A stretch of DNA of 64,000 bases from Burkholderiales bacterium (GTDB lineage Bacteria; Pseudomonadota; Gammaproteobacteria; Burkholderiales; SG8-39), in NCBI GenBank assembly GCA_036274735.1, contig DASUFD010000053.1, positions 19,587-83,586 of the forward strand, given 5' to 3'. Of this stretch, positions 48,111-63,949 are shown one piece after another. The position numbers were made by a program, and so were the translations under genes. Positions within the stretch are counted from its first letter, which is position 1. Each line of letters starts with the position of its first letter. The notes beneath the pieces are model-generated. The model was not told the DNA's origin. It searched no databases and saw nothing but the letters and a program-made list of their open reading frames with translations.

Positions 48111-48803
48111 ATGTGCGGTCGTTACGCGCTCCACGCCCATTCCGAGGTCGTCGCGCTTCAGTTCCGCCTTGCGGCGGCGCCGGCTTTCGCGCCTCGCTAC
48201 AACATCTGTCCGGGTAGCGAGGTGCTCGCGGTGCGCGCCGACGAGCGCGGCCGCCGTAGCGTCGGCGAATTCCGCTGGGGCCTCATTCCGCATTGGGCGA
48301 AGGATGCGGCGATCGGACAGAAGCTCGCGAATGCGCGCGGCGAGAGCCTGGGCGAGAAGCCTGCATTTCGCGATGCTTTCCGGCGCTCACGCTGCCTCGT
48401 ACCCGCCAGCGGATATTTCGAGTGGCGCAGCGTGGCCGGGAGCAAACACCCCTGGTACTTGCGTCCCGCCGACGAACGGCTGTTCGCCCTCGGCGGCCTC
48501 ACCTCGCTCTGGCACGGACCCCAGGGGACGGTACGCAGCGTATCGCTCATCACCACGCCACCCAATCGCCTTACCGGGCCGATCCACGACCGTATGCCGC
48601 TCATCCTCGCCCCGCGCGACTACGACGCCTGGCTCGATCCGGGCAACGACGATGTCGAGGCCCTGAAAGCGTTGGTGCGCGCGTATCCGGCAGAAGAGAT
48701 GCGCGCGTACGCGGTGAGCCCGCGGGTTAATGCACCCGCCAACGACGATGCCGCGCTGATTGAGCCGCTTCCCGAGGGGCCGGCGCAGCGCGATTTGCTG
48801 TAG
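48111..48803 (+). CDS. SOS response-associated peptidase (SRAP/YedK-like abasic-site processing protein)
   Basis: ORF 230 aa. Invariant N-terminal 'MCGRY', then 'RYNICPGS', '[12 protein letters not shown]', 'NARGES', '[12 protein letters not shown]', 'HDRMPLIL'. Confidence 0.9.
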
Positions 48804-48813
48804 CGCCACCATA

Positions 48814-48829
48814 CTGTATATAATGCCAG
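48814..48829 (+). promoter_or_regulatory. LexA operator (SOS box) overlapping -10 hexamer of lexA
   Basis: CTGT-ATATAATG-CCAG, a CTGT-N8-ACAG consensus with one mismatch. An embedded TATAAT (48819-48824) lies 9 nt upstream of the lexA ATG. Confidence 0.8.
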
Positions 48830-48833
48830 TCCA

Positions 48834-49466
48834 ATGGATGCCGCGAACGCGCTCACCGCAAGGCAAGCCGAAATTCTGCGCTTGGTGCGCGAGCTGACCG
48901 AGGTGTCGGGCTACCCGCCGACCCGCGCCGAGATCGCCGAGCGCATGGGATTCCGCTCGGTGAACGCCGCCGAGCAACACCTGCGCGCGCTGGAACGAAA
49001 GGGCGCGATCGAGATCTCATCGGGCGCCTCGCGCGGCATCCGCGTGCGCGATGCCCGCGCGCCGACGCGGCGTCTGCTCGAGCTTCCCGTCGTCGGCCGC
49101 GTGGCCGCCGGCGCGCCGATCCTCGCCGAGGAGAACGTCCAGGGCCACTATCAGGTCGACCCGAACCTGTTCACGCCGCGCGCCGACTATCTGCTGCGCG
49201 TGCGCGGCATGTCGATGCGCGACGCCGGGATCCTGGAAGGCGACTTGCTGGCGGTGCACCGCACGCCGGAGGCGCGCAGTGGACAAGTTGTCGTCGCGCG
49301 CCTTGCCGACGAAGTCACCGTGAAGCGCCTGCGCCGTCGCGGCCACGTCGTGCAGCTCGAGCCGGAAAATCCCGAGTTCGCCCCGATCGAGATCGACCTG
49401 CGGCGCGAAGCGCTGGCCATCGAAGGCGTGGCCGTCGGTGTAATACGCAACGGCAAGGGCCTTTGA
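48834..49466 (+). CDS. lexA: LexA repressor
   Basis: ORF 210 aa. Winged HTH '[46 protein letters not shown]'. Cleavage site 'VAAGAP'. Ser/Lys dyad 'GMSMRDAGI' and 'VTVKRL'. Confidence 0.95.
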
Positions 49467-49504
49467 GAAGCCGATAGAATGGGCGCGGGCTCTTTCGCCT
49501 GCGC

Positions 49505-51340
49505 ATGAGCGATACCACGCTAGCCAACGGCGCCCCCAGCGCCGACCTCCGAAACCGCGCCGCACGCGAGGACATGAGCGCCGAAACGTTTTCGGCGCAG
49601 ATCCGCGATCGAGCCGATCCTCGTCTCGTGCTCGCAGACCGCGTCGAGCAGCTCTACAGCCAGCTGCCGCTGGGTATGGTCGCCACCCTCGCGATCGGCT
49701 TCATCGCCGCCGTCGAGCTGCGCGAAGGTCGCTTCATCGAGCTGGTGCTCTTTTGGAGCACGCTCCTCGTCGTGGTCGTTGCGCTGCACGCCGTGCTGTA
49801 CTTTGGCTACCGCCGCGACGCCGACAAGGTGGCGCAGGCGCCGCAATGGCTGCGCTGGCTTGGCATCGGCGCTTTCGCCGTCGGAGCGGTATGGGGATTC
49901 GCCGCCGCCGTGTTCTTTCCCTCTCATACGGACGAGCGGCAGGTCTTCCTCGCGTTCGTCCTCTCCGGGGTCATCTCCGGCGGCATCCCGATGTACGCCG
50001 CCTCCTGGCCGGTCTTCGCCGCCTACGCGGCCGCCATCGCCCTCCCCTTCACGTACGTGCTCGCCACCTTCGGCAACCGACTATTCGCCGAGATCGCGCT
50101 GCTCATTCCGCTCTTCTACGGCGCGAGCGTCGCCATCGCCTACCGGCTGAACGCGGTCTTCTTCTCGGGCTACCGGCTGCGACATGCCTATGGCCGCTTG
50201 ACCGAGGACTACAGCCTGCTCAATCGGCGGCTCGAGCGCCAGCTTGTCGAGCTCGAGGAAGCCCGGCGGCAGGTGGAGGCGAGCGGACGCAAGCTCGCCC
50301 TGTTCGCCGAGCGCGCGCCGATCGCCGTGCTCGAGCTCACCTCGGAGGCAACCGTGACGCAGATGAATCACGCAGCCGAGCTGCTTTTCGGCTATGCCGC
50401 CGGAGAGCTGATCGGCGGCTCGATCAAGCGCCTGGTGCTGCCGCAGTTCCAGGACGAGTTCGACCGGCAGTGGAGCGAGCTGATGTCCAGCCGCAGGCCG
50501 ATGGCCGGAGTCAAGGTGCGCAATCCGCGGCGCGACGGCATCTCGATCGTCTGTGAATGGACCGTGACGCCGCTCGTCAATGCCGAGGGCAGGGTGATCT
50601 CCGTGATCGCGCAGGGCCGGGACGTCACCGCGCAGCTCGAGGCGGAGCGCATGAAGAAGGAATTCACCTCGACGCTCTCGCACGAGCTACGCACGCCGCT
50701 CACCTCGATCATCGGCTCCCTGCAACTGATCAACGCCGGGGTGATGGGGGAAGTACCCAAGGACGTGGCCGAGCTGACCGACGTTGCCGAGCGCAACGGG
50801 CAGCGCCTGCTCGATCTGATCAACGACATCCTCGACATCGAGAAGATCGAGTCGGGCAAGCTCACCCTCGCTCCCGAGGCGATTCTCGTCGACGAGCTGG
50901 TGCAGGAGGCGATGGTGCTGAACAAGGGCTTTGCCGACCGGTTCAAGGTGCGCTTCGAGCCCGACGGGGCGCTCGCGAAGAGCGCGGTGCAGGCCGACCA
51001 CAAGCGGCTGCTGCAGGTCATGACCAACCTGCTGTCGAACGCCGCGAAGTTTTCCCCGGAGGGCGACGTCGTGCAGATCACCACGGAGGCGCGCGACGGC
51101 CGGCTTCGCATCGGCATTCACGATCGCGGCCCGGGGATTCCGGAAGCTTTCCGCGCGCGTATCTTCGGCCGCTTCAATCAGGCCGACTCGACCACCTCGC
51201 GACAGAAGGGCGGGACGGGCCTCGGCCTGGCGATCTGCAAGCGACTGATCGAGATGATGGACGGTAAGATCGGCTTCCAGGACCGCCCCGGCGGCGGCAC
51301 GACTTTCTGGTTTGAACTGCCATGCCTGAACGCCCGCTAG
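49505..51340 (+). CDS. membrane sensor histidine kinase (multi-TM N-domain, PAS, HisKA, HATPase_c; no receiver)
   Basis: ORF 611 aa with about 6 hydrophobic helices in the N-terminal third. Coiled coil 'LERQLVELEEARRQVE', PAS-like region, H-box 'FTSTLSHELRTPL', N box 'LLSNAAKFSP', G boxes 'HDRGPGIP' and 'GGTGLGLAICK'. Confidence 0.85.
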   Translation: MSDTTLANGAPSADLRNRAAREDMSAETFSAQIRDRADPRLVLADRVEQLYSQLPLGMVATLAIGFIAAVELREGRFIELVLFWSTLLVVVVALHAVLYFGYRRDADKVAQAPQWLRWLGIGAFAVGAVWGFAAAVFFPSHTDERQVFLAFVLSGVISGGIPMYAASWPVFAAYAAAIALPFTYVLATFGNRLFAEIALLIPLFYGASVAIAYRLNAVFFSGYRLRHAYGRLTEDYSLLNRRLERQLVELEEARRQVEASGRKLALFAERAPIAVLELTSEATVTQMNHAAELLFGYAAGELIGGSIKRLVLPQFQDEFDRQWSELMSSRRPMAGVKVRNPRRDGISIVCEWTVTPLVNAEGRVISVIAQGRDVTAQLEAERMKKEFTSTLSHELRTPLTSIIGSLQLINAGVMGEVPKDVAELTDVAERNGQRLLDLINDILDIEKIESGKLTLAPEAILVDELVQEAMVLNKGFADRFKVRFEPDGALAKSAVQADHKRLLQVMTNLLSNAAKFSPEGDVVQITTEARDGRLRIGIHDRGPGIPEAFRARIFGRFNQADSTTSRQKGGTGLGLAICKRLIEMMDGKIGFQDRPGGGTTFWFELPCLNAR

Positions 51341-51711
51341 AGCGCATCTGTTACGTCGAGGACGACGAGGACATCCAGCGGATCGTGCGCATGTCGCTCG
51401 AGCGCGTCGGCAAGATGACGGTGCAGATCATCACCGACCCCGGCGCCGCACTCGGCGCCATGGCGAGCTTCAAGCCCGATCTCGTCATGCTCGATTGGAT
51501 GATGCCGGGCATGGACGGCCCGACGCTTTTCCGCGAGATGAAAAAGCAGCCCGATCTCGCCGCGCTGCCCGTGGTCTTCATCACGGCGAAGGCCGGGCAG
51601 CGCGACCTCGATGAGCTGAAGAGCCTCGGCGCGGCCGGGACGATCTCCAAGCCCTTCTCGCCGAAGGACCTTCCTGAGCAGCTGCGCGCCATTTGGGCCA
51701 AGCTGCCCTAG
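51322..51711 (+). CDS. single-domain response regulator (CheY-like receiver)
   Basis: ORF 129 aa. 'YVEDDEDI', phospho-acceptor context 'DLVMLDWMMPGMDG', 'VVFITAK', 'ISKPF'. 19-nt overlap with the kinase gene. Confidence 0.85.
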   Translation: MPERPLERICYVEDDEDIQRIVRMSLERVGKMTVQIITDPGAALGAMASFKPDLVMLDWMMPGMDGPTLFREMKKQPDLAALPVVFITAKAGQRDLDELKSLGAAGTISKPFSPKDLPEQLRAIWAKLP

Positions 51712-51716
51712 CCGCG

Positions 51717-52982
51717 TCAGTGCAGCTTCACGGTGTCGTCAGCCACCGCGTCCGCGTCCTGCTCGAACTTGCGCGTCAGGAAACCGATGACCTCGTCGGC
51801 ATTGCGAAAGCGGGCTTCCCGGTCCTTCTCCAGCAGCTTGTCCATCAGACGCTGATACTGCTGTAGCGGCTCGGGCAGGGGCGGCGGCGTCTTGTTCAGA
51901 TGCTGCAGCGCCACCTCGACCGCGGAGTCGCCTTCGAACAGATGGCGCCCGGTGAACATCTGGTAGAGAAGCACTCCGGCGCTATAAATGTCGGTGCGCA
52001 GGTCGAGCGCCCGGCCCTGCACCTGCTCCGGGCTCATGTAACGCGGCGTGCCGAGCACCTCGCCGGCGCTCGTGCGGTCCACCGCGTCAACGTGCTTCGC
52101 GATGCCGAAATCGACAATTGCCAGGCTACCGTCGTCGCGGAACATGATGTTCTGCGGCTTGAGATCGCGATGCAGGATGCCTCGTTCGTGGATATCGCCG
52201 AGCGCGAACATGAGCTCGCGGAAAAGCCGCAGCGCCTCGGCCGCCGCCTGGGGCTTGCCGGCAAGGCGCTTGTTCAGATCGCCGCCTTCGAAGAACTCCA
52301 TCACCAGATAGGCGTAGCCCTCCACGTCGCCATGCCCGTAAATACGCGCCACGTGTCGGCTCTGAATGCGCTCGACGAGCGAGTATTCCTCCATGAAGCG
52401 CGCGAGCGCGTTCTTGTCGGACACGATCTCGCGTCGCAGGATCTTGACCACGAGCGGCGCGTCATCGCCTTCCTTGGACGCGAGATAGACCCTCGCCGTT
52501 CCCCCCTCGCCGATCAAATGCAGCACGTTGATGCCCGGGATCCGGATTTTCGCGCCGAGGTTGTGGCCCTCCAGCCGCGCTGCGAGCTCGGGCGACACCG
52601 TCCTTTCCACGGCGTCGGCCGTCAGCTCGTGGATCGAGGTGATGAGCTTCTCGCGCGTCATCTCCTGCTTGCGCTGATAGTCGTCGGCCCCCGCCTTCAT
52701 CGCGCGCACCGCGATGATTTCATTGCCGGCCCCGGTGAGGAACAGGACCTTCGGGCAGTCGGCCCGGGTCTTCAGCCGCTGCAGCCAGTCGAGGCCGTCG
52801 CCGCGGCCGAGCATATAGTCGAGGATGACCACATCGTAGGAACGGAGGGGAAAACCGGCGCCCGGAAAATCGCGCTCCAGCGGATCGTAACCATCCACTC
52901 CGGCGTCCGGCCAGCGCTGCTTGATATATCGCCCGAGGAGCTCGCGCAGGTCCGGGTCGTCGTCGATGATGAGCACGCGCAT
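51717..52982 (-). CDS. response-regulator receiver fused to Hanks-type Ser/Thr protein kinase
   Basis: ORF 421 aa. REC motifs: 'VLIIDDDPD', 'VVILDYMLG', 'LFLTGAG', 'DDYQRK'. Kinase motifs: 'IGEGGTARVY', 'VVKIL', 'HRDLKPQNIM', 'DFGIAK', 'GTPRYMSPE'. Confidence 0.85.
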   Translation of the reverse strand: MRVLIIDDDPDLRELLGRYIKQRWPDAGVDGYDPLERDFPGAGFPLRSYDVVILDYMLGRGDGLDWLQRLKTRADCPKVLFLTGAGNEIIAVRAMKAGADDYQRKQEMTREKLITSIHELTADAVERTVSPELAARLEGHNLGAKIRIPGINVLHLIGEGGTARVYLASKEGDDAPLVVKILRREIVSDKNALARFMEEYSLVERIQSRHVARIYGHGDVEGYAYLVMEFFEGGDLNKRLAGKPQAAAEALRLFRELMFALGDIHERGILHRDLKPQNIMFRDDGSLAIVDFGIAKHVDAVDRTSAGEVLGTPRYMSPEQVQGRALDLRTDIYSAGVLLYQMFTGRHLFEGDSAVEVALQHLNKTPPPLPEPLQQYQRLMDKLLEKDREARFRNADEVIGFLTRKFEQDADAVADDTVKLH

Positions 52983-52992: not shown

Positions 52993-53298
52993 TCACTCAT
53001 ACGCGATCTGCACGCGGGCGAGGTACTCGGCATATTCGGCGATCCGCGCCTCGAGCGATGCCCGGTCCCCGCTGCGCGCGCCGTCCTCGATGTATTTGCC
53101 GAGGATCGAGACTTGGGTGAAACCGTAGGAGTGGCCGACGCCTTTCATGCGATGTCCGAGCTGCCGCAACTGCTCGAAATCCGCTGCAGCGAGCGCCACG
53201 CGCAGGGTTTCGACCTCCTTGTTGCGGTTCTTGAGGAACACCGGGATGAGATCCTCGATGTCCCGCGCGACCGTGACCTTATAGTCGTTCTCGTCCAT
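52993..53298 (-). CDS. histidine phosphotransfer (Hpt) domain protein
   Basis: ORF 101 aa. 'DFEQLRQLGHRMKGVGHSYGF' matches the Hpt HxxKG phospho-His helix. Stop lies 10 nt upstream of the REC-kinase ATG. Confidence 0.7.
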   Translation of the reverse strand: MDENDYKVTVARDIEDLIPVFLKNRNKEVETLRVALAAADFEQLRQLGHRMKGVGHSYGFTQVSILGKYIEDGARSGDRASLEARIAEYAEYLARVQIAYE

Positions 53299-53349
53299 AT
53301 TCGCCGCATTATAGGCAGGGCAGTATCACAGCGGCGTTTCGACCGCCGG

Positions 53350-53868
53350 TCAGGGTTTGTCAGCCAGCACGTCGCGCGCCCGAGCGAGATGCGGATGCAG
53401 CGAAAGCGCCGCGGCGAAGGTGTAGCGCGCATCGGCGGATGCGCCTTCGCCGAGCAGTATTTCCGCGAAGTGCAACATCGCGGCGAAATGCCGCGGCTCG
53501 AGCGCGAGCGTACGCGCGATGTCGTGCAGGCATTCAGCGTCGCGACCGAGCAGGTAGTACAACGTGGCGCGCTTGTGCCATGCCTCGGGGAAGTCCGGCG
53601 TGCTGCGCAGCAGCCGGGTGAGACGCGTCTCGGCGATGTCGTAGCGCTGCGCGGCGATGTCGCGCGTCGCCGCGTCGAGCGCGGCGGCAGCGCCGGCGTG
53701 CGGGTGGTGCATCCAGGCGCTCCAGATGCGCTCTTCGGTCTCCTCCGCCTCCCCGGTCGGACAGCAGGCGAGACGACGGAAGAGTTGCGCAAGTCCCGGG
53801 AGATCCCGCGCGGGGCGACGCGCGCGGCGCTCGGCGATGAGGTTGAGGATTCCGCTCTCGGCCGTCAT
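53350..53868 (-). CDS. tetratricopeptide-repeat protein
   Basis: ORF 172 aa with high GC3. 'PDFPEAWHKRATLYYLLGRDAECLHDIARTLALEPRHFAAMLHFAEILL' are TPR-like helices. ATG lies 12 nt after the dnaE2 stop. Confidence 0.7.
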   Translation of the reverse strand: MTAESGILNLIAERRARRPARDLPGLAQLFRRLACCPTGEAEETEERIWSAWMHHPHAGAAAALDAATRDIAAQRYDIAETRLTRLLRSTPDFPEAWHKRATLYYLLGRDAECLHDIARTLALEPRHFAAMLHFAEILLGEGASADARYTFAAALSLHPHLARARDVLADKP

Positions 53869-53880: not shown

Positions 53881-56862
53881 TTAATGGAAATCCCGGGAAG
53901 CCGCTGCGAGCGGCCCGAGCCAGGCGCTGTGGTCGACCAGGCGGCGCGCGACGAGATGCACGACGTCGGCGTCGCGCTCCACGATGCCGTGCACGCCGAG
54001 CAGCCGTGCACCGAGCAGCTCGTCCCGCTGGCGCTCGGCGAGCCGCGCCCAGACGACGATGTTGGCGCACCCGGTTTCGTCCTCGAGCGTGACGAAAATC
54101 ACGCCGCTTGCCGTATCGGGACGCTGCCGGCAGGTCACGAGGCCGGCGACGCTCGCCCGCGCGCCGTGCGGCAGCCGTCGCAGCTCCTCCGCGGTGAGTA
54201 GACCGCGCTTGCCGAAACGCTCTCGCAGCAAGGCGAGCGGATGGCGACCGAGCGTCAGGCCGAGGCTCGTGTAGTCGTCGGCGACGTCGTCACGTTCGCG
54301 CGGCGCGGCGAGCGAAGGTTGCGGCTCCGAGCCGAACGTCTCGAGCGGGGCCTGAACGGCGGCGCCGGCCGCGCTCCAGTGGGCGAGGCGCCGGTTCCCG
54401 GCCAGCGAGCCGAGCGCGGCGGCAGCCAGCGCTCGCAGGTCCTTGCGATTGAGCTGCGCACGTCGGGCGAGAGCCTCGACGTCTTCGTAGGGGCGGCGCG
54501 CGGCGATGCGCCTACCCGACGCCTCGGCGAGCCCGCGCACCATGCGCAAGCCGAGTCGAAGCGCCTTCTCCTCGAGCGTGCAGTCCCAGTCGCTCGCATT
54601 CACGTCCGGCGGGCGTACCTCCACGCCATGCCGGCGCGCGTCCTGCACGAGCTGCGCCGGGGCGTAGAAGCCCATGGGCTGGCTGTTGAGCAGGGCAGCG
54701 CAGAACGCCGCCGGATGGTGGCACTTGAGCCACGAAGAGACATACACGAGTAGCGCGAAGCTCGCCGAGTGGGACTCGGGAAAGCCGTACTCGCCGAAGC
54801 CGAGGATCTGCCGGTAGATGCCGTCGGCGAACTCGGCGCTGTAGCCGTTCACGCGCATGCCGCGCTTCAGCTTCTCCTCGAAGTGCTCGAGGCCGCCGCG
54901 CTTCTTCCATGCCGCCATCGACCGGCGCAGGGCATCGGCCTCGCCGGCCGAGAAGCCGGCCGCCACCATGGCGAGCTGCATGACCTGCTCCTGGAAGATC
55001 GGCACGCCGAGCGTGCGCTCGAGCACCTGCCGGACCGCGTCGCTCGGATACTCGACCGGCTCGGCCTCGCGTCGTCGGCGCAGATAGGGATGAACCATGC
55101 CACCCTGGATCGGACCCGGGCGCACGATCGCCACCTCGATGACCAGATCGTAATAGCTCGCGGGGCGCAGGCGCGGCAGCATGCTCATCTGCGCACGCGA
55201 TTCGATCTGGAAAACGCCCATGGTATCGGCTTTCTGGATCATGGCGTAAACCGCCGGATCCTCGGCCGGCACCTCGTGCATCTGCATTCCCAGCATCTGC
55301 AACGCTTTGCGAATTGCCGTGAGCATGCCGAGTGCCAGGACGTCCACCTTGAGGAGTCCGAGCGCCTCGAGATCGTCCTTGTCCCACTGGATCACCGTGC
55401 GCTCCGGCATCGCCGCGTTCTCGATCGGCACGAGCTCGCAGAGCGGCCCGCGCGAGATAACGAACCCGCCGGTATGCTGGGAGAGGTGGCGCGGAAAGCC
55501 GCGCAGCAGCTGCGCCAGCTCAAACCACGTCGCGGTTTCGGGCAGAGGGCCGTCCCAGAATGCGAAGCCCTTCGCCGTGCGCTCCACCTCATCGGGCGGC
55601 ACGCCGAGCGCCTTGCCCACGTCGCGCAACGCGCTCTTCGGCCGGTAGCAGATTACCGTCGCGGCAAGCGCCGCGCGACTACGGCCGTACTTGCCGTAGA
55701 TGTACTGGATCACTTCCTCCCGCCGCTCGTGCTCGAAATCGACATCGATATCCGGCGGCTCGTTGCGCTCGCGCGAAAGGAAGCGCTCGAAAAGCACGCT
55801 CATGCGCGCCGGATCCACCTCGGTAATGCCGAGGGCGTAGCAGACGACGGAGTTCGCCGCCGACCCCCTCCCCTGGCAGAGGATTCTCCGGCTGCGCGCA
55901 TAAGCGACTACGTCGTGCACAGTGAGAAAGAAGGGCTCGTAGCCGAGCTCGGCGATGAGCGCGAGCTCATGCTCGGCGGTCTCCCGCACCTTGTCCGGCA
56001 CTGCATTGGAAAAGCGCCGCGCGAGGCCCTCGGCGACCAGCCGGCGCAGCCAGGTGGCCGGCGTTTCGCCCGACGGCACGATCTCCTGCGGATACTCGTA
56101 GCGCAGCTCGTCGAGAGAGAACCGACAGCGCTCGGCGACGGCCAGCGTTTCGGCGAGCAGCTCCGCAGGATAGAGCTGAGCGAGACGCACGCGCAGCCGC
56201 AGGCTCCTCTCGGCGTTGGGAAAAAGCGCCTGGCCGCATTCGGCGACCGGACGCTTCAGGCGGATGGCAGTGAGGACATCCTGCACGCGGCGCCGCGAGC
56301 GCACGTGCATGTGCACATCGCCGGCGGCGACGAGCGGCAAGCCGTATTCTCGGCCCAGCGCCCGCAGCCGGGCGAGACGCATGCGGTCGTTTGGCCCGCA
56401 ATGCAGCTCGGCGGCGATCCAGGAGCGGCCGGCGAAATGCTCGGCGACCCAGCCGGCGGCGGGAAAGTCTTCGCCCGGGACCCAGAGCAGTAGGGCGCCG
56501 CTCCCCGACACTGCCGCGATATCCTCGCGTCGAGCGGCATATCGCCCTTTCCGGCTGCGCCGGCGCGCCTCGCTGATCATGGCGCTCAGAGCGCCATACG
56601 AGCGCCGGTCCGTGGCGAGGAGCACGAGCTTGAGGCCGTCTTCCAGCGTGACTTCGCTGCCGAGAATCAGCGGCAGGCCGAGCTCCTTCGCGGCCAGATG
56701 CGCGCGTACGGCGCCGGCGAACGAGCATTCGTCGGTCAGTGCGAGCGCTCGGTAGCCGAGCGCGCGGGCACGCGCCACGAGCTCTTCTGGATGGGAGGCA
56801 CCGCGCAGGAAGCTGAAGTTGGACAGGCAGTGCAGCTCGGCGTAATCAGGCAAACCAGCCAT
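53881..56862 (-). CDS. dnaE2: error-prone DNA polymerase DnaE2 (ImuC)
   Basis: ORF 993 aa. PHP N-terminus '[23 protein letters not shown]'. Pol III alpha core '[18 protein letters not shown]' and '[14 protein letters not shown]'. Follows imuA-imuB. Confidence 0.9.
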
Positions 56863-58018
56863 GTAGGTACCAATCGTCTTCTTCTCGATAGATCCACCCG
56901 AGCGCGCCCTGGAGGCGTGCGACGAAGTAGTCGCGGCGCGCCTCGTCTCCGTCCCACCAGCCGCACTCGATGCGCTCGGGCCCGGCTACCAGCTCGAAGC
57001 GGCCCGGCTCGAGACGGCGCGGCGGCTGGACGAGCCATGCCGGACGCGATCCCGGGGAGCGGAACTCGCGTGCATCCCAATCCCCGGGATCGATACGTCG
57101 CCACGCGTGCTCGGGGCGATGGTCCGGAATCGTCGTCACGCCATAGACGGCGTCTCGGCCAAGGCGCGCCTGGAGCCGCTCGAGGAGCTGCGCCCAGTCC
57201 TCGCTCTCGCCTGCGGCGTCGCCGAATAGCCCCCGGCTGCCTCCGGGAGCCGCCGCGAAGTCGGCGGCCTGAAGGCGAATCGCGTGGACCGGCTCGCGCA
57301 GATCGAGCATCGCCAGCCGCTCGCGAAGCAGGCGCACGAAACGCGCCGTTTCCCGTGATGGCGAGGCGAGATTCACGGGAACCGTTGTACCCGAGCCCCG
57401 GGCATCGATCAGACGCAGCGTGAACGTGCGTATTCCGGCATGGCGGGCGGCGAGCAGGCCTTCGAGCTGCAGAAGCAGCCGGCGTGCGGCGAAGAGGAGC
57501 GCCTCGGTTTGTATCACTTCCGCGGAGAGCTCGAGCTGCACGTCGAAGCGATCGGGAAGCGCGAAAAACTCGCGCGCCTCTTCTCGCAGGCCGCGCGCGC
57601 CGTCGAGCTCGTCCAGCACGCGCTTCGGGCAACGTCGGGCGAGGCCGGCGCGGGGCAGCTGCGCCAGATCGCCGAGCGTCGCGATGCCGATCGTGCGGAA
57701 GAAATCCAGTTCCCAACGGGTGACTTCCAGCGGCAGCGCGTCGAGGACAGCGCCGCTGCCGCGGGCGAGCCACAGCGCTGCGCGCGGCGTACCTGCCGTG
57801 GCGAGCGAAGCCTCGAGCCCGAGATCGGCGAGCCCGGCTCGCAGGGCTTCCAGCAGCGCCGGGAGGCCGCCGAAGTAGCGCAGGCTGCCGCCGACTTCGG
57901 CAAGCAGCGCATCGGGGCGCTCGAGAGAAACCCTAGGCGTGAACTGGCAAGCCCAGGCAGCGATCGCTTCGATCGTGGCGGGCGCGAGCTGGCGGAAGTG
58001 CAGGCCGACCCAGAGCAT
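56846..58018 (-). CDS. imuB: ImuB (Y-family polymerase-like, non-catalytic) protein, short form
   Basis: 390 aa from ATG 58018 ('[11 protein letters not shown]...'). '[20 protein letters not shown]' is an HhH-like segment. Position between imuA and dnaE2, with a 17-nt overlap with dnaE2. The upstream part of ORF 56846..58426 is non-protein-like. Confidence 0.75.
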
Positions 58019-58634
58019 GACGAGGTGAAGAAAGCGCGAGCCGCAGCACGGCGCCGGCGGAAGCGCCGCGGCGCTTGAGCAGCCGCACGACGAGCTCCGC
58101 CTCGCCGGGGTGTACCTCGAGCCGAAGCGCCGCCGGCGAACACTGACGCGCCGTTGCTGTCGGACGATAAAGGAAAGCGAGCGCGCGGCCCGCCTCGGCG
58201 GCAAGCGCAAGTCGCTGCAGCTCGATATAGCGCAGGCGTGGCAGCCAGGCGACCAGAGCGGCAATGACTCCGCTGCGCAGCACCTGCTCCGCGGCCCAAA
58301 GCGCATCCCGGGGCCGCTGCGGTTGCAGCACAACGAGCTGTGCGAGATCAACACCACCGGCAGCGAGCGCCGGCGCATAGGGAACGTGCGGCGGGGCGAG
58401 CCAAACGATGCGCTTGCCCGACGCACTGAGGGCGGCCAGGGCCCGTAGCACGAGCTCGAGCTCGCCGATGCCTTGGGCCTCGCCGAAGATCTCGGTCAGA
58501 TCGCCGGTCGGCCAGCCTTGGCCTGGAAGCGCGGCGTCGAGGTCCGGGAAGCCGGTGGCGATTCCCGGTAGCCAGTGCGCGATGCGCGATGCGCGCCACA
58601 CCGGCTGGGATTGCAGGATCTCTTCCACCGTCAT
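57933..58634 (-). CDS. imuA: ImuA (RecA/SulA-like SOS mutagenesis protein)
   Basis: ORF 233 aa. 'IATGFPDLDAALPGQGWPTGDLTEI', 'GIGELELVLRAL', 'RIVWLAPPH', 'LLKRRG'. First gene after a canonical SOS box. Confidence 0.75.
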   Translation of the reverse strand: MTVEEILQSQPVWRASRIAHWLPGIATGFPDLDAALPGQGWPTGDLTEIFGEAQGIGELELVLRALAALSASGKRIVWLAPPHVPYAPALAAGGVDLAQLVVLQPQRPRDALWAAEQVLRSGVIAALVAWLPRLRYIELQRLALAAEAGRALAFLYRPTATARQCSPAALRLEVHPGEAELVVRLLKRRGASAGAVLRLALSSPRHALGRPALPPARARHDRSDRCLGLPVHA

Positions 58635-58635
58635 G

Positions 58636-58651
58636 CTGTTATTATATACAG
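58636..58651 (-). promoter_or_regulatory. LexA operator (canonical SOS box) overlapping -10 hexamer of imuA
   Basis: CTGT-TATTATAT-ACAG, a perfect CTGT-N8-ACAG. On the minus strand TATAAT (58641-58646) is followed by 6 nt and then the imuA ATG. Confidence 0.85.
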
Positions 58652-58689
58652 TATCGGCGGACAGCGCTGTCGAGCTGCAGGTCGCGCGC

Positions 58690-59577
58690 TTACTCGCAGA
58701 AGAATTCGATCAGCTCGTTCGCCCTGGCGCGCGGCTGGCCGAACGCTATCCAGCCATGGCCTCGCAAAGTGAACTCCTCACGCCGCAGCACGATCTCCTT
58801 GTCGCCATCGATAGTAACGAACGTGCCGTTTGCGCTGTGATCCGTCAGGACGAACTTGTCCAGCCGGCGTTCGATCTTGCCATGCGCACGCGAGGCCATC
58901 CGTTCCCGGATGACAAGATCGGCAGACGGGTCGCGGCCCAGGGCAACGAACGGGCGTTGCGCCGAAAGCACGTACTCGTTGCCCTGCACGACGAGCCGAA
59001 GCTTGGAGTCCTTCGGCTTGTACGCCGACCTGTCCGATGCGAGGGTCGTCATGTCCTCGCTCTCCTGCCAAACCAGTTCGTAGACCGGGATTTCCTGCAC
59101 CCTGCCCTTCACCTCCATCGTCGTGATGGCGCGCGTCGCTGCCCTCAGCATCGGCGACATGAGCATCACGGTATCGCGCGCGGTGATGATCTGTCCCTTC
59201 GTCGCCACGCGCGCAAGGCGCGCCGCCACGTTGACGGCGTCGCCGAAGAGGTCGCCGTCGCGCTCGACGACGGGACCGAGGTTGAAGCCGATGCGGATGC
59301 CGATGCGCGTGTTGCCCACGGGCGTTAGCTCGGCAATCGCCCGTTGCATTTCGATCGCTGCAGCGGCCGCCGCATCCGCCGTCGCGAAGGTTGCCATGAC
59401 TTCGTCGCCGAGGGTCTTGACGACGCGGCCGTTCGCCGCGAGCGTCTTTTCGCGCATCAGGTTTACGCACTTTTCTATCGCGGCGTGCGCGACGGCGTCT
59501 CCGACGAGTTCGTAGAGCTTGGTGCTGCCGCTGACATCGGCAAAAAGAACCGCGGCTTCGCTCAAGTCCTCAGCCAT
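58690..59577 (-). CDS. class III adenylate cyclase with C-terminal FHA domain
   Basis: Cyclase motifs 'VLFADVSGST', 'KTLGDEVMATF', 'GDLFGDAVNVAARL' (Lys/Asp specificity pair suggests ATP). FHA motifs 'ALGRDPSADLVI', 'SRAHGKI', 'SANGTFV'. Start ATG 59577 preferred; ATG 59607 or TTG 59622 possible. Confidence 0.8.
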   Translation of the reverse strand: MAEDLSEAAVLFADVSGSTKLYELVGDAVAHAAIEKCVNLMREKTLAANGRVVKTLGDEVMATFATADAAAAAAIEMQRAIAELTPVGNTRIGIRIGFNLGPVVERDGDLFGDAVNVAARLARVATKGQIITARDTVMLMSPMLRAATRAITTMEVKGRVQEIPVYELVWQESEDMTTLASDRSAYKPKDSKLRLVVQGNEYVLSAQRPFVALGRDPSADLVIRERMASRAHGKIERRLDKFVLTDHSANGTFVTIDGDKEIVLRREEFTLRGHGWIAFGQPRARANELIEFFCE

Positions 59578-59620: not shown

Positions 59621-59650
59621 AAAAAAAAGCGGGGCGCCGAAGCGCCCCGC
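59621..59650 (-). terminator. rho-independent terminator downstream of the ligD-ku-HTH/TPR-nuclease unit
   Basis: Minus strand reads GCGGGGCGC-TTCG-GCGCCCCGC (9-bp stem) followed by T8. Confidence 0.75.
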
Positions 59651-59675: not shown

Positions 59676-59698
59676 TTGCAGCGCTCGCTTGCAGCGCT
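59676..59698. repeat. direct repeat TTGCAGCGCT x2 (3-nt spacer)
   Basis: Copies at 59676-59685 and 59689-59698. Each contains the palindrome AGCGCT. Confidence 0.7.
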
Positions 59699-59749
59699 TT
59701 TTACTGCGGCTCGAATGTTGGAGCCCGCGAACTGACGATATTTGACAAG

Positions 59750-60136
59750 CTAATGCTTCGGCTTCTGCGTACGCGAAGAGCGCACAGTCACGCGATGGCG
59801 ATCACCGATCCATTGTGCTCCGCGCCCGGCACGCGGGCCAATGTCGCTCTGTTCGATGCGCCGTCCGTTGATGTATACCTCGGCGAGGAGCCGGCCGTAG
59901 CGATCGGCTCCGAGAGGACGAAGCGTCACCTCGCCGGAGGAAATGAGCGCGCGAAGCCGCTGCTTGGCCGCCGGCCCGTCCGCTTGATCGAGCTCCGCTG
60001 CATACACGTTCGTCAATCGCACCTTCTGTCGGTTGCACACCAGCGTGTCGCCATCGATGGCAATGCATCGTTCGCCGCAATGGACGGACGAGGCCGTGGC
60101 TGCGAGGGCGAGCGCGAGAAGGACTCGCCGGCTCAC
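59750..60136 (-). CDS. thermonuclease (staphylococcal nuclease-like) family protein, secreted
   Basis: ORF 128 aa. Signal peptide 'MSRRVLLALALAATASS'. SNase-like 'AIDGDTL', 'VRLTNVYAAE', 'DRYGRLLAEVYING'. 4-nt overlap with the upstream gene. Confidence 0.65.
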   Translation of the reverse strand: MSRRVLLALALAATASSVHCGERCIAIDGDTLVCNRQKVRLTNVYAAELDQADGPAAKQRLRALISSGEVTLRPLGADRYGRLLAEVYINGRRIEQSDIGPRAGRGAQWIGDRHRVTVRSSRTQKPKH

Positions 60137-60951
60137 TTGCCCGATTGCAGCAGGCGCCGGTACTGCGCCATGTAGCGAATGGCTTCGCGCGGTTTGCGAA
60201 GCGCTTCGGAGAGGAGCGCCAGGTTGTAGCAGCAGTCGGCGAAACGGGGATTGAGGCGCAACGCCGCTTCGTAGGCGTTGAAGGCTTCCTCCCGTCGCCC
60301 CAAGTCCTCTAGGACCAGGCCCAAGTTATAGAGTAGCCGCGCATCGTCGCCGGAGATGCGTAGCGCGCCGCGATAGGCCTGCTCCGCATCGGTCAGCCGC
60401 CCGAGCTGGTGTAGCAGCCGGCCCAAGTTGATCCCGGCCTCCGGCATTCCGGGCTCGAGGGCGAGCGCGTGCTCGTACGCCGCGAGCGCCGCCTCCGCAT
60501 CCGCGGCCTCGAGCGCCGCGCCCCGGTCGAACCAGTCGGCCGCCGAGGAGAGCTGTTCGCGGCGGCGCGTCTCCATTACGCGGAGAGAACCGTCGGCGGG
60601 ATTGCCGTGGAAGCGCAGCAGGTACTGCCCGGATTCGGCGTGCCATCGTGCCGTGCCCTCGCCCACCACCAGGTGATCGCCTTCGGCGCTGATGTTGAGG
60701 CCGGAGAGCGGCATGGCAGACGGCAGGCGCCGTCGCAGCTCCCTGATGGAGCGCATCACGCGCCGCGGCGAAACGTTGGCAGCGACGAGCGACTGCGCGG
60801 TACGAAGGACGATCAGGTCACGGAAGGAAAAACGCCAAGCGTTGCGCGGCCCGCGCGAGGGAGAGACGAAGCCGGCACGGATGAGCCGCCTGATCGTACC
60901 CGGGGCAAGTCGCAGAAGCTTGGCGGCCTCGCGCAGGCCGTAGTCCACCAC
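60133..60951 (-). CDS. excisionase/MerR-type HTH domain + TPR repeat protein
   Basis: 272 aa from GTG 60951 (1 nt after the ku stop) inside ORF 60133..61161. HTH 'GLREAAKLLRLAPGTIRRLIRAGFV'. C-terminal TPR repeats 'AEQAYRGALRISGDDARLLYNLGLVLEDLGRREEAFNAYEAALRLNP'. Confidence 0.65.
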   Translation of the reverse strand: MVDYGLREAAKLLRLAPGTIRRLIRAGFVSPSRGPRNAWRFSFRDLIVLRTAQSLVAANVSPRRVMRSIRELRRRLPSAMPLSGLNISAEGDHLVVGEGTARWHAESGQYLLRFHGNPADGSLRVMETRRREQLSSAADWFDRGAALEAADAEAALAAYEHALALEPGMPEAGINLGRLLHQLGRLTDAEQAYRGALRISGDDARLLYNLGLVLEDLGRREEAFNAYEAALRLNPRFADCCYNLALLSEALRKPREAIRYMAQYRRLLQSGK

Positions 60952-60952
60952 C

Positions 60953-61813
60953 TTATTTCTTGGCCGCCCTGCGCGCCGTGGTCTTCGCCGCGGCAGCCTC
61001 CGTCCCTTTGGGCGCTTGCGCTCGCTTGGCCGGCTTCTTTTCCAGGCTGGCGCGCAGCGCTTCCATGAGATCGATAACCTCGCCGCCCGCCGAGGGCGCC
61101 TCGGCACCCGTGATCTCCTGGCCTTCGATCTTCTTCTGCACCGCCGCTTCGATTCGCGCACGTACGTCGTCGCTGTACTGGGTGGGGTCGAACTTGTCCG
61201 CCGACTGTTGCTCGATCAGCTGCTGCGCGAGCTTGAGCTCGGCCGGCTTGACGTCCATGTTCGGAATCTCGATGTCGCGCAGCGAGCGCACTTCGCCGGC
61301 GTACAGAAGCTGCTGCATTACCAGACCTTCCACGAGGTCCTCGACGGGACGAATCATCACGATGTACTGCTTGCCGCGCGCCGCCCACCGGCCGATCGCG
61401 CAGCGGCCCGACTCGCGCAACGCTCGCGCGAGGAGCGCATATGGCTTCGCCCCGCCCTTGTCCGGACCGAGGTAGTAGGCCTTGTCGAAGTACACTGGAT
61501 CGACCGCCTTCAGCGGCACGAACTCGGTGATCTCTGCCGCGTGCGTGCCCGTTTCCTCCATGGCCTTCAGCTCTTCCGGAGTGAACATCACGTACTGGTC
61601 CTTGGCGAATTCGTAGCCCTTGACCATGTCTTCGCGCGGCACGACGACTTCTTCCTTGACGCAGACGTACTGCTGCTTCAACCGCGAGCCGCATGCCTTG
61701 TGCAGCAGATTGAAGGAAATGGCGCGGCTCGCCTCGGTTGCCGAATACAGCTTTACCGGGATGGAAACCAGCCCGAAGGACACAGTCAGCGAAGCGATCG
61801 ATCGCGCAGCCAT
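60953..61813 (-). CDS. ku: Ku protein (NHEJ DNA end-binding)
   Basis: ORF 286 aa. 'SLTVSFGLVSIPVKLYSAT', 'VKGYEFAKDQYV', basic Lys/Ala-rich C-terminal tail. GGGAGG SD upstream. Confidence 0.9.
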   Translation of the reverse strand: MAARSIASLTVSFGLVSIPVKLYSATEASRAISFNLLHKACGSRLKQQYVCVKEEVVVPREDMVKGYEFAKDQYVMFTPEELKAMEETGTHAAEITEFVPLKAVDPVYFDKAYYLGPDKGGAKPYALLARALRESGRCAIGRWAARGKQYIVMIRPVEDLVEGLVMQQLLYAGEVRSLRDIEIPNMDVKPAELKLAQQLIEQQSADKFDPTQYSDDVRARIEAAVQKKIEGQEITGAEAPSAGGEVIDLMEALRASLEKKPAKRAQAPKGTEAAAAKTTARRAAKK

Positions 61814-61873
61814 TCAAACCTCCCGAAATGGGCGAACATACGCGGGGAACGGATTGTAGTACAAAGGGATTTC

Positions 61874-63949
61874 TCAGGCACTGGGGACCTTGAGTGCCGC
61901 CTCCAGGCTAAACTTCCGGCTTAATGCCTCCTTCCACCGGTCGCCCGTCTGGCGCAGACGGTCGGCGGCGTTGGTGAGCCGAAAGTCCAGTGGATGCGCT
62001 CCCGCGAGCTCCTCCCAGGTAAGCGGCATCGAGACCGGGGCGCCCGCCGCTCCGCGCGGCGAGTAGGCGACGTTCAGGGTCTTGCCGCGCACGTTCATGT
62101 TGTAGTCCATGAATATCTTGCCGGTGCGCCTGGGCACGCTCCACTCCATGGTGATGTCCTTCGGATGACGCCGCATGAGGTGCCGGCCGACCAGCTCCGA
62201 AACCTCGCGCGCGGCGTCGAAGTCGATGGTGCGACGGATGGGTACAAAAACGTGCAGCCCGGTTTTTCCGGAGGTCTTCACCACCGCGTCGAGGCTCATG
62301 CTCAGCAGAAGCTCACGCAGGCGGAAGGCGACTTCCTTGCCTTTTTCGAACGCTACGGTGTTGAGCTCCGGCTCCTCACCGGGCTTCTCCTTCCCGGAAT
62401 AGACGTACGGGTCGATGTCGAACACCACGTAGTCCGGATAGTTGAGCACCGACGCCTCCAACGCGGCCAGCGAGCTCGCATATTCGGTCCTGCTGCTCTT
62501 CGCGTCGGGACCTGGCTTCGCACGCGAATGCCAGACGTGGAACTCTAGCGTGCCGGACTGGGCGAGCCAGAGCAGCGTCGGCAGATTGTTGCACAGGACA
62601 TAGCCGTGACTCTCGTCCTTGTGCTCGGAAAAGACCGTGATCGTCTCCACGAACGACGGCCGCGCCTGGTGCCAATGCTTCTGGAAGAAGCGCTGTCCCT
62701 CGATGCCCTCCGGCATCCGAATCATCGTCAACGGCCGGTCGGCCAGGTGCGGCAGCATGTAAGGCGAGACCTGCGCGAGGTAGCACAGCAGGTCGCGCTT
62801 GGTGAGGGCCGGTTGCTGGAGCGCACGGTCGGCAGGCCAGTACACTCGATCGAGATGGGTGAGGCGGATCTCATGGCCAGCTAGCGCGAGCGTGAACGCC
62901 GCCTTGCCGCTGCCGAGCTGCTCGAGGATGTCCGCGATCTCGCCCTTGGGTCTCGCCGCCGCGTCGCCGAGCGAAGGGCGGCGCACATCGGCGGCGGCGA
63001 TGTCATCGCGAAAACGGAGGAACACCGGCGCGCGCAGGCGGTGATCGTGCGTCCACCCCTGGAACTTGACTTCCGCCACGACCCTCGGTTCGACCCAGAC
63101 CGCGGGCGCGTTGAGCTCCGGATCTTCCGAGAATGGGTTGGTCTTGCGCTGCAGCGAGGCGAGAAGAAGCTTCGCCTCGGCGAGGCTGCGTGCGTCGAAG
63201 CCCGAGCCGACATGCGATGCGAAGTGAAGCTCGCCGTCCTGCCAATAGCCGACCAGCAAAGCCCCGAGCGAGGCGCGCGACCCCTTGCCCCTCGTATAGC
63301 CGCCGACAGCGAAATCGGCGCTGGCGAACGCCTTGATCTTCAGCCACGCGGCCGAGCGCTTGCCGGTTTCGTACACGCTGCTCTTGCGCTTGCCGATCAC
63401 GCCTTCGAAGCCGCTCGCCATCGCCGCCTTCTGCAGCGCAAGGCCGTCCTCACTCGCGTGCACAAGCTGCACCCGCGCGGAAGGTAGAAGGCATTGCGCC
63501 AGATAGCGCCGGCGGTCCGCGTAGGCCGATTTGCGCAGGTCGATGCCTGCGAAGTTCAACAGATCGAAGGCGTAGAAGACAGCGCGCTCGGCCCCGCTTG
63601 CGCGGTTCTGCATCGCCGCGAACGACGGCTTGCCGCTCTCGTCGAGCGCCACGATCTCCCCATCGAGAATCATGCCGTTCACCGCCTGCGCGGAAAGCTC
63701 GCCGACCAGGCGGGGGAAATCCGCACCGAGCTCCAGGCCGCGGCGCGAACGCAGTCGCACACCCCCCGCATCGATGAAGGCAAGCGCCCGGTAGCCGTCG
63801 AGCTTCGGTTCCCACATCCATTCCGGGCTGTTGAACGCGGACTTGCCCAGCTCGGCGTGCATCGGCGTCAGCTTCTCGGGCAAGGAGCGCACGTCGCCGC
63901 CCGGCACCAATCGCTCTGCCGGGATGCGATGAATCGGCACCGCGCTCAT
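61874..63949 (-). CDS. ligD: ATP-dependent DNA ligase LigD, two-domain form (ligase + polymerase/primase, no phosphoesterase domain seen)
   Basis: ORF 691 aa. Ligase motif I 'EPKLDGYRA', 'LDGEIV', 'EGVIGKR', 'WLKIK'. C-terminal LigD-Pol region 'LTHLDRVYWP', 'PLTMIRMPEGI', 'FFQKH', 'DYVVFDIDP', 'KTSGKTGLHVFVP'. Confidence 0.9.
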   Translation of the reverse strand: MSAVPIHRIPAERLVPGGDVRSLPEKLTPMHAELGKSAFNSPEWMWEPKLDGYRALAFIDAGGVRLRSRRGLELGADFPRLVGELSAQAVNGMILDGEIVALDESGKPSFAAMQNRASGAERAVFYAFDLLNFAGIDLRKSAYADRRRYLAQCLLPSARVQLVHASEDGLALQKAAMASGFEGVIGKRKSSVYETGKRSAAWLKIKAFASADFAVGGYTRGKGSRASLGALLVGYWQDGELHFASHVGSGFDARSLAEAKLLLASLQRKTNPFSEDPELNAPAVWVEPRVVAEVKFQGWTHDHRLRAPVFLRFRDDIAAADVRRPSLGDAAARPKGEIADILEQLGSGKAAFTLALAGHEIRLTHLDRVYWPADRALQQPALTKRDLLCYLAQVSPYMLPHLADRPLTMIRMPEGIEGQRFFQKHWHQARPSFVETITVFSEHKDESHGYVLCNNLPTLLWLAQSGTLEFHVWHSRAKPGPDAKSSRTEYASSLAALEASVLNYPDYVVFDIDPYVYSGKEKPGEEPELNTVAFEKGKEVAFRLRELLLSMSLDAVVKTSGKTGLHVFVPIRRTIDFDAAREVSELVGRHLMRRHPKDITMEWSVPRRTGKIFMDYNMNVRGKTLNVAYSPRGAAGAPVSMPLTWEELAGAHPLDFRLTNAADRLRQTGDRWKEALSRKFSLEAALKVPSA

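Follow-up and report, generated by a model that had tools for sequence, protein, structure and literature searches.

The adaptive mutagenesis cassette, with the gene order lexA-imuA-imuB-dnaE2, encodes the ImuA-ImuB-DnaE2 mutasome, and the association of SRAP with imuABC, DinB and Ku/ligase has already been described in a study that leaves kinases and two-component systems unmentioned (PMC3765255). How the mutasome is restrained or licensed beyond LexA is poorly understood, and the question bears on stress-induced mutagenesis and on the evolution of drug resistance. Here, we analyze a 64,000-nucleotide (nt) stretch of DNA from a Burkholderiales bacterium (GenBank assembly GCA_036274735.1, contig DASUFD010000053.1, positions 19,587 to 83,586), which we refer to as the window, and within it the 16 kb at positions 48111-63949, where a predicted phosphorelay ending in a receiver fused to a Hanks-type serine/threonine (Ser/Thr) kinase lies between imuABC and lexA, and where genes for non-homologous end joining (NHEJ) are found nearby. 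The window shares with the described cassette the canonical order of imuA, imuB (here assigned by position and homologs) and dnaE2, overlapping reading frames, a predicted LexA box directly before imuA and a nearby lexA, and SRAP and Ku/ligase are known frequent neighbors of such cassettes (PMC3765255). It differs in that lexA is not upstream of imuA but ~4.4 kb beyond the end of dnaE2, on the opposite strand and converging, with four relay genes between dnaE2 and lexA and a TPR gene following dnaE2.

The relay itself resembles the multistep phosphorelays, i.e., KinA-Spo0F-Spo0B-Spo0A of Bacillus and the systems built from a hybrid histidine kinase, Hpt and a response regulator, in that all four parts are present with their phospho-acceptor residues intact. 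Its output, however, is a Hanks kinase (joined in relatives by a class III cyclase) and not a DNA-binding domain, and its genes are split over two converging units with stop codons that nearly touch or overlap; related cassettes in outgroups use a hybrid kinase instead of the separate kinase and receiver seen here. In Pseudomonas aeruginosa, HptB feeds HsbR (PA3346) in the HptB-HsbR-HsbA partner-switch pathway. This is a comparable arrangement, in which an Hpt protein feeds a receiver fused to an enzyme controlling the Ser/Thr phosphorylation of other proteins. PA3346 itself is a receiver-PP2C phosphatase/kinase (PMC12189002), but the output in the window is a Hanks kinase, not a PP2C phosphatase or an anti-sigma-type kinase, and no anti-sigma-antagonist partner is encoded near the relay. 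We found no characterized receiver-Hanks kinase in the literature or the solved structures searched. The third relevant system, the bacterial ku-ligD NHEJ operon, is matched by adjacent, co-directional genes for Ku and for LigD with ligase and primase-polymerase domains, and differs from the window in that a conserved third gene, HTH-TPR, is present here and the window LigD has no detectable phosphoesterase. The relay, SOS and NHEJ components are all of known kinds, and three features of their arrangement appear to be undescribed: the conserved placement of a receiver-Hanks-kinase relay between imuABC and lexA; a widespread and uncharacterized cassette family made up of Hpt, receiver-cyclase, receiver-kinase, receiver and histidine kinase; and the ligD-ku-HTH/TPR operon, for which we found no description.

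Gene identities were assigned by listing open reading frames and by Pfam and NCBIfam scans of the window proteins, and this recovered 15 genes at 48111-63949. An earlier note on this DNA had listed these genes together with two SOS boxes, a terminator and short intergenic gaps, and all of these are present as it described, at the coordinates it gave. Four genes lie on the plus strand, namely SRAP, lexA, a histidine kinase (HK) and a stand-alone receiver (REC), and 11 co-directional genes, not 12 as the note had counted, lie on the minus strand, namely ligD, ku, HTH-TPR, an SNase-like gene, a gene for a cyclase with an FHA domain (cyclase-FHA), imuA, imuB, dnaE2, TPR, Hpt and a receiver-Ser/Thr kinase (REC-STK). 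The gaps from SRAP to ligD measure 30, 38, -19, 5, 10, 51, 12, -17, -86, 55, ~170, -4, 1 and 60 nt, with the ~170-nt gap, between cyclase-FHA and the SNase-like gene, being the site of the terminator. An Rfam scan of 47.5-64 kb at E <= 0.1 gave no match. With moderate confidence, we read these 16 kb as a mosaic of four units, each with its own evolutionary history, and not as a single integrated system. One of the four units, the relay, consists of the following genes.

49505-51340, plus strand: HK, a membrane histidine kinase with PAS, HisKA and HATPase_c domains and no receiver domain.
51322-51711, plus strand: REC, a stand-alone receiver of 129 amino acids (aa) (Response_reg, E 1.5e-23).
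51717-52982, minus strand: REC-STK, a receiver fused to a Hanks-type Ser/Thr kinase (Response_reg and Pkinase).
52993-53298, minus strand: Hpt, a phosphotransfer protein of 101 aa (Pfam Hpt, E 9e-10).

All parts of a multistep phosphorelay are therefore encoded in these four genes, i.e., a HisKA/HATPase_c kinase, an intermediate receiver, an Hpt protein and a terminal receiver with an output domain. HK contains six hydrophobic segments between aa 54 and 211, a cytoplasmic PAS domain and the H-box SHELRTPL, which is invariant in 13 orthologs, and REC, whose gene overlaps the end of HK by 19 nt, carries the motifs EDDED, LDWMMP, FITA and SKPF, likewise invariant in 13 orthologs. In Hpt, the motif LGHRM(K/R)GVG, which includes the phospho-accepting His and reads GHRMKGVG in the window, is invariant in 16 orthologs. 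The receiver motifs of REC-STK are invariant across its orthologs, and its kinase domain has the catalytic Lys, HRDLKPQN, DFG and GTPRYMSPE, these kinase motifs being retained in at least 80% of the sequences of an ortholog alignment into which frameshifted copies also entered. A sequence search of the PDB with REC-STK returned generic kinase domains only, the best relatives being StkP, PknA and PknB, and no solved receiver-kinase.

The two converging units are complementary, with HK and REC supplying a kinase and a receiver and no output, and Hpt and REC-STK supplying a phosphotransfer protein and an output and no phosphate donor. From these complementary parts, their conserved adjacency, the homologous cassettes found at two outside loci (L034 and L036, see below) and fusions of REC-STK to Hpt, we infer that phosphotransfer would follow the simplest path, from HK to REC to Hpt to REC-STK. 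The relay would then be a self-contained multistep phosphorelay carried on two converging transcription units, to which many relatives add a receiver-class III cyclase (REC-cyclase) as a putative second output. The stop codons of REC and REC-STK are 5 nt apart in the window, with spacings of -4 to +23 nt across loci, and in five relatives (L002, L003, L004, L006 and L022) the two overlap by 4 nt. Since KL(P/H) forms the C-terminus of both proteins, the junction at 51705-51725 is spanned by a short inverted repeat, AAGCTGC...GCAGCTT; folding of this convergent junction gave no significant structure (z = +1.0).

We followed the relay through species-dereplicated genomes with a scan anchored on ImuB, which yielded 26 loci with 10-kb flanks that were compared using tblastn matrices and gene maps; the maps came from a codon log-odds gene caller, which misses imuA and the SNase-like gene in the window. 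All but one of the 26 loci belong to uncultured Burkholderiales or Betaproteobacteria metagenome-assembled genomes (MAGs). A constant block, imuA-imuB-dnaE2-[TPR]-Hpt-[REC-cyclase]-REC-STK converging on REC-HK-lexA, with optional genes in brackets, is present in 18 of 18 sufficiently long loci of one clade, 14 of them ImuB-anchored species-level genomes and 4 anchored on REC-STK (L027-L030), and two further loci that end just after REC-STK fit the same block. The juxtaposition of the relay with imuABC and lexA, to which the earlier note had drawn attention, is thus recurrent and not unique to this genome, and at the same time is confined to a single clade. The block occurs in three variants, with TPR-Hpt-REC-STK, the form in the window, as variant A, TPR-Hpt-REC-cyclase-REC-STK as variant B, and Hpt-REC-cyclase-REC-STK, without TPR, as variant C, which looks like the ancestral form of the cassette in the clade. 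We considered and rejected a strict alternation, in which a locus would carry either the REC-cyclase of the relay or a cyclase-FHA gene upstream of imuA, since both are present in L007 and neither lies within 10 kb in L004 and L022. In L015, an HD-GYP-type gene (HD_5 and DUF3391, positions 16904-18124) lies between REC-STK and the converging REC, an insertion that adds a cyclic-nucleotide phosphodiesterase-like component to the cassette.

The identity of REC-STK is 71-88% within the clade and at most 46% outside it, and among the 120 matches listed in homolog searches with REC-STK and TPR, all came from the clade, at 75% identity or more. REC-STK homologs of at least 77% identity are abundant in soil metagenomes, and the four DNA contexts fetched from these (L027-L030) are equally syntenic on the right flank, where pncB, an MFS transporter gene, an acetyl-CoA hydrolase gene and a cation-efflux gene follow. 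Across the whole clade, even in its most divergent members (L014 and L019), pncB adjoins lexA. This unrelated flank is conserved equally well, so conservation alone cannot separate function from descent, and the adjacency seen within the clade is what common descent by itself would produce. Four outgroup ImuB loci with 34-42% ImuB identity (L020, L021, L024 and L026) contain no relay, and in two of these (L021 and L026) the canonical lexA-imuA order is present. We propose that in the ancestor of the clade, which is made up of uncultured soil Burkholderiales, the cassette may have come to lie between dnaE2 and lexA and would have been inherited there since.

More distant members of the relay family were sought in a protein library clustered at 50% identity and then with a profile of 27 receiver-kinases. 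At 50%, the clade is reduced to one full-length representative (78% identity) and fragments, with the next full-length receiver-kinases at 46% or less, and the profile search recovered a diverse receiver-kinase family. Six contexts from outside the clade (L031-L036) were inspected, and none of the six contains imuABC, lexA, ku or ligD within 10 kb. Three of them hold the same relay cassette standing alone: in L034, genes for a CHASE2 hybrid histidine kinase, Hpt, REC-cyclase and REC-STK converge on REC; in L036, the order is HK, REC, REC-cyclase, REC-STK, Hpt and REC; and in L035, REC-cyclase and REC-STK converge on REC. Of the others, L031 has REC-STK and Hpt beside a pil-chp chemosensory cluster, and L032 and L033 have REC-STK without adjacent relay genes. 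Identities to the window in L031 and L034-L036 are 40-44% for Hpt and 40-45% for REC-STK. In addition, the databases contain fused proteins, with REC-STK-Hpt in P0134 and P0159 (573 and 598 aa, their Hpt part being recognized by eye from a HxLKG-type motif) and REC-STK-cyclase in P0371 (607 aa), and these fusions support a functional tie of the receiver-kinase, Hpt and cyclase to one another and not to repair genes. Based on the cassettes that other Proteobacteria carry in the absence of repair genes and on the fusions, we regard the relay as a pre-existing, self-contained cassette, with two predicted outputs, Ser/Thr phosphorylation and the synthesis of cyclic nucleoside monophosphates (cNMP). 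A tblastn search of a plasmid collection with REC-STK found generic kinase-domain matches of at most 39% identity and no ortholog.

The genes flanking the relay would form classical SOS units, in which lexA is autoregulated, imuA-imuB-dnaE2(-TPR) carries the same LexA box, and SRAP lies alongside. Their features in the window are these.

48111-48803, plus strand: SRAP, a YedK-like abasic-site/SOS-associated peptidase beginning MCGRY (Pfam PF02586, E 2e-68).
48812-48829, plus strand: predicted LexA (SOS) box TACTGTATATAATGCCAG before lexA, containing a TATAAT and ending 4 nt upstream of the ATG.
48834-49466, plus strand: lexA (LexA_DNA_bind and Peptidase_S24), 80-90% identity across the clade.
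53350-53868, minus strand: gene for a small TPR protein of 172 aa, starting 12 nt after dnaE2.
53881-56862, minus strand: dnaE2 (imuC), error-prone polymerase (NF004225, 1424 bits against a cutoff of 939).
56846-58018, minus strand: imuB, 390 aa, starting MLWVGLHF, assigned by position, overlapping frames and homologs.
57933-58634, minus strand: imuA (NF033429 equivalog, 208 bits against a cutoff of 150).
58636-58653, minus strand: predicted LexA (SOS) box TACTGTATATAATAACAG, with its end 1 nt upstream of the ATG of imuA.

Only two matches to TACTGTATATAATNNCAG with three or fewer mismatches occur in the 64 kb, where 0.01 are expected, and these are the boxes before lexA and before imuA; the same scan found no LexA box before ligD, cyclase-FHA or SRAP. 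The imuA box contains a perfect CTGT-N8-ACAG and is kept in all 22 clade loci that include the 5' region of imuA. Contrary to the earlier note, the lexA box has one mismatch to CTGT-N8-ACAG; it is found at the same position in 14 of 14 loci inspected. SRAP also has to be placed differently, since it precedes the lexA box, and no LexA box was found in the gap of 26 nt that leads up to SRAP itself. Among relatives, SRAP adjoins lexA, is separated from it by dinB, or in a few cases was not found. In several relatives, the lexA box is bordered by a divergent dinB (Pol IV), and SRAP lies farther away. This divergent arrangement of dinB and lexA is seen in L002, L007, L008 and L010, and also in L005, L006 and L011, with start codons only ~20 nt apart and a single LexA box filling the gap, so that one operator would serve both genes.

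ImuB has no Pfam or NCBIfam match, and its assignment rests on its position between imuA and dnaE2, on overlapping frames (imuB overlaps dnaE2 by 17 nt) and on 52-74% identity in 22 syntenic loci. The overlap of imuA with imuB (57933-58018) is unusually long, conserved and out-of-frame, measuring 86 nt in the window and most loci and 71 nt in the variant C group. The gap from dnaE2 to TPR is -14 to 23 nt in 11 loci, and the TPR gene, which variants A and B carry and variant C lacks, is likely to be the fourth cistron of the imuABC transcript. A sequence search of the PDB with the TPR protein returned only designed or generic TPR proteins.

The relay has putative transcription signals of a different kind, one of which is the following.

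53308-53315, minus strand: CCTATAAT, a -10-like element located 9 nt upstream of the ATG of Hpt, where a Shine-Dalgarno sequence is lacking.

This element occurs once in the 64 kb, with 0.08 expected, and a CTATAAT-type element is found 6-10 nt before the Hpt ATG in those loci whose true Hpt start was displayed; it is absent from the outgroup locus L034, which has a normal ribosome-binding site. No canonical -35 is present at a spacing of 16-18 nt from the Hpt element, and CCTATAAT is probably the cassette's own promoter, of the leaderless type. A conserved TAGAAT/TATAAT element and a GC hairpin precede the HK gene, and no LexA box was found before Hpt or HK in any locus examined. Because -10-like elements and no LexA boxes are found before Hpt and HK, the relay probably has promoters of its own, with SOS read-through possible on top. 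The proposed relay promoters would thus be CCTATAAT before Hpt and TAGAAT before HK, to which read-through from the SOS units may add. As for such read-through, no terminator is present on the dnaE2 side of the relay in any locus, the gap from dnaE2 to Hpt in variant C is 0-78 nt, and the gap from lexA to HK is 26-135 nt across loci. The small gaps and the lack of a terminator on the dnaE2 side make read-through from the imuA SOS promoter plausible. In the window genome, no terminator lies between the relay and either SOS promoter, so DNA damage would be expected to raise relay expression by read-through; several relatives, however, have a terminator-like hairpin with a T-run directly after lexA, before HK.

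The hairpin before HK is GC-rich, GCGCAGGC-loop-GCCTGCGC, and lies within 49467-49504; the equivalent gaps of L002-L022 also carry a hairpin. It reaches or overlaps the start codon of HK, directly 3' of the conserved TAGAAT, and may be a translational or 5'-end control element. The ATG codons of Hpt, lexA and imuA all lie 7-10 nt after a TATAAT hexamer, which for lexA and imuA is inside the LexA box, and lack a Shine-Dalgarno sequence, a pattern that suggests leaderless or near-leaderless mRNAs in the clade.

On the far side of imuA, the minus strand begins with the NHEJ genes, which end at a terminator.

59629-59650, minus strand: predicted strong intrinsic terminator with a 9-bp all-GC stem and T8, ending the ligD-ku-HTH/TPR-SNase unit.
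59750-60136, minus strand: SNase-like protein (Pfam SNase, E 1e-6, a weak partial match) with a hydrophobic, signal-like N-terminus.
60133-60951, minus strand: HTH (MerR/HTH_17)-TPR, whose start codon, picked by reading, follows the stop codon of ku by 1-2 nt.
60953-61813, minus strand: ku (Pfam Ku, E 1.5e-51).
61874-63949, minus strand: ligD (PF01068, PF04679 and PF21686; TIGR02776, 488 bits against a cutoff of 373).

Scanning metagenomes with HTH-TPR as the anchor gave 80 loci, 44 of which have enough upstream sequence, and in 42 of these 44 (the exceptions being L068 and L069) ku lies directly upstream of HTH-TPR. Wherever the contig reaches far enough, ligD precedes ku, and the order ligD-ku-HTH/TPR holds down to 45-52% identity. 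As judged from this conserved gene order, ligD-ku-HTH/TPR is a real conserved operon, and the HTH-TPR protein may act as a regulator of bacterial NHEJ or as a third factor in it. Of the adjacencies listed in the earlier note, that of HTH-TPR with ku-ligD reflects a conserved partnership, and that of NHEJ with the mutasome is a local arrangement: neither imuA nor cyclase-FHA is found downstream in 18 of 18 HTH-TPR-anchored loci with at least 3 kb of downstream sequence, and among the ImuB-anchored loci ligD-ku-HTH/TPR directly adjoins imuA only in L010. The picture would be of a tightly packed, conserved NHEJ operon, ligD-ku-HTH/TPR(-SNase), ending at a strong terminator. The GTG start of the SNase-like gene overlaps the stop codon of HTH-TPR. 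LigD, of 691 aa, has its ligase at the N-terminus and its primase-polymerase at the C-terminus, and Pfam detected no phosphoesterase domain at E <= 0.01; the LigD homolog in L010 is 889 aa, ~200 aa longer, and may carry that domain.

Between this terminator and imuA lies a single gene.

58690-59577, minus strand: class III nucleotidyl cyclase that carries FHA at its C-terminus (Guanylate_cyc, E 1.4e-15, and FHA, Pfam).

The catalytic D, D, N and R of this cyclase are present in FADVSGST, GDEVMA and NVAARL and conserved in six orthologs. In five other loci (L002, L006, L007, L008 and L023), cyclase-FHA heads a co-directional module upstream of imuA, in the order cyclase-FHA, a Ser/Thr kinase with Sel1 repeats (~850 aa), DotU-OmpA, IcmF-N, TagF (in some loci) and a TagH-like FHA protein, and this module ends 19-41 nt before imuA. 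Sister modules upstream of imuA were seen at L002 3663-8440 and L006 477-9300, and in L007, L008, L023, L027, L028 and L030. In the sister genomes, five other genes thus separate cyclase-FHA from imuA, and the window lacks all module genes except the first, with the result that cyclase-FHA abuts the imuA SOS box. The direct adjacency of cyclase-FHA and imuA is peculiar to the window, and the gene would be the leftover first gene of a kinase/FHA/type VI secretion system (T6SS)-accessory-like module that sister genomes have kept. The sister genes between cyclase-FHA and imuA have the domains of the T6SS threonine-phosphorylation set (PpkA, TagH/Fha, TagF, TssL/DotU and TssM/IcmF), but differ from that set in that no T6SS core genes are visible in the sister flanks and the IcmF-like protein is only ~630-660 aa.

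The points that weigh against a mosaic gather around the relay. LexA-box units on both sides of it read into it across small gaps, free of terminators on the dnaE2 side, and such LexA-box flanks and small gaps exceed the expectation from random placement. The dnaE2/relay and relay/lexA junctions are unbroken in ~20 genomes, and in these same genomes the junction upstream of imuA shows at least five states, with genes also being gained and lost within the cassette. In sister genomes, each of the two signaling modules flanking imuABC includes a Hanks kinase and a class III cyclase, and the upstream module also has FHA proteins, which hints at cross-talk around the mutasome. Such observations can be assembled into a scheme in which the clade has recruited the relay into its damage response: LexA cleavage would de-repress both converging operons, with Hpt and REC-STK made together with the mutasome and HK and REC together with new LexA; a membrane/PAS signal would be combined with DNA damage, with Ser/Thr phosphorylation (and cNMP in relatives with REC-cyclase) as the output; and the targets would be the mutasome, LexA or FHA-domain partners, such that error-prone synthesis is tuned. 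The invariance of the block in 18 of 18 loci speaks for this scheme, as do gaps that are tiny or overlapping with no terminator between dnaE2 and the Hpt unit, the finding that the only LexA boxes head the two units reading into the relay, the repeated rearrangement of the left junction of imuA and never of the relay junctions, and the FHA proteins and second Hanks kinase upstream of imuA in sister genomes, together with the FHA-cyclase of the window. A functional link between SOS and the relay is indeed possible because no terminators separate the units. However, the same cassette exists in outside lineages without repair genes, the relay genes have conserved -10-like elements of their own and no LexA boxes, a terminator-like hairpin and T-run lie between lexA and HK in several relatives, the pncB flank, although unrelated, is just as conserved, the association is limited to a single lineage, and our literature searches gave no precedent for a link of imuABC or the LexA regulon with a two-component system or kinase. 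We consider recruitment of the relay into the damage response possible but doubtful. A more specific proposal, that the relay captured between imuABC and lexA is a damage-induced arm joining a membrane/PAS cue with DNA damage and controlling error-prone synthesis or LexA through Ser/Thr phosphorylation read by neighboring FHA proteins, we regard as unlikely, and under the mosaic reading, in which the synteny comes from descent and any read-through would be passive, we infer that the relay has no dedicated damage-related role.

The earlier note went further and saw one 16-kb system in which every repair module is flanked by a signaling gene, i.e., an integrated damage-signaling neighborhood of six signaling or interaction genes and four repair functions. 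Co-directionality and short gaps in the window point in this direction, and the clustering of SRAP, lexA, imuABC and Ku/ligase is a known tendency (PMC3765255). Two of the pairings are real, that of the relay with imuABC-lexA and that of HTH-TPR with ku. Several findings speak against a single system: a strong terminator splits the minus-strand array; the NHEJ operon is not beside imuABC in any of the 18 HTH-TPR-anchored loci that extend far enough downstream and is directly beside imuA only in L010 among ImuB-anchored loci; cyclase-FHA is directly beside imuA only in the window; and no LexA box precedes ligD, cyclase-FHA or SRAP. Because the cyclase-FHA/imuA and NHEJ/mutasome adjacencies are window-specific, the picture of a regular interleaving is not supported, and most of the apparent regularity comes from local deletion and local juxtaposition. 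We therefore hold a single integrated neighborhood to be very improbable. Hardly any credence is left for an anti-phage defense locus with a kinase like that of PD-T4-6 or MADS and a cyclase like that of Pycsar, an idea raised by PADLOC and NCBIfam, in which the kinase domain matches PD-T4-6 and mad6 and the cyclase domain matches PycC. These matches cover generic catalytic domains only and fall far below the cutoffs (for MAD6, 140 bits against 460), no effector or partner genes are present, and the region belongs to the core chromosome and has conserved synteny, with no tRNA, repeat or integrase bounding it. Searches for tRNAs and repeats found none at the region boundaries, with repeats only at chance level, and the window as a whole is ordinary core chromosome that encodes, by reading of the translations, ligA, smc, pnp, infB, nusA and trpS.

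The mosaic reading guards against over-reading of the locus. At the same time, a relay held between imuABC and lexA in ~20 genomes is a concrete and testable candidate for control of the mutasome, the candidate parts being HK, the receiver, Hpt, the receiver-kinase and the nearby FHA readers of phospho-Thr. If the relay did act in this way, it would represent a post-translational, environment-gated control of SOS mutagenesis, for which there is no described precedent.

The position of the mutagenesis cassette on the chromosome also varies. In the outgroup betaproteobacterial MAG L021 (positions 1-21203, compared with window positions 17837-31013), the cassette sits between homologs of the window genes at 25709 and 28477, which by reading of their translations are rimP and trpS. 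This placement differs from that in the window, and the mutagenesis cassette thus occupies different chromosomal sites in related lineages.

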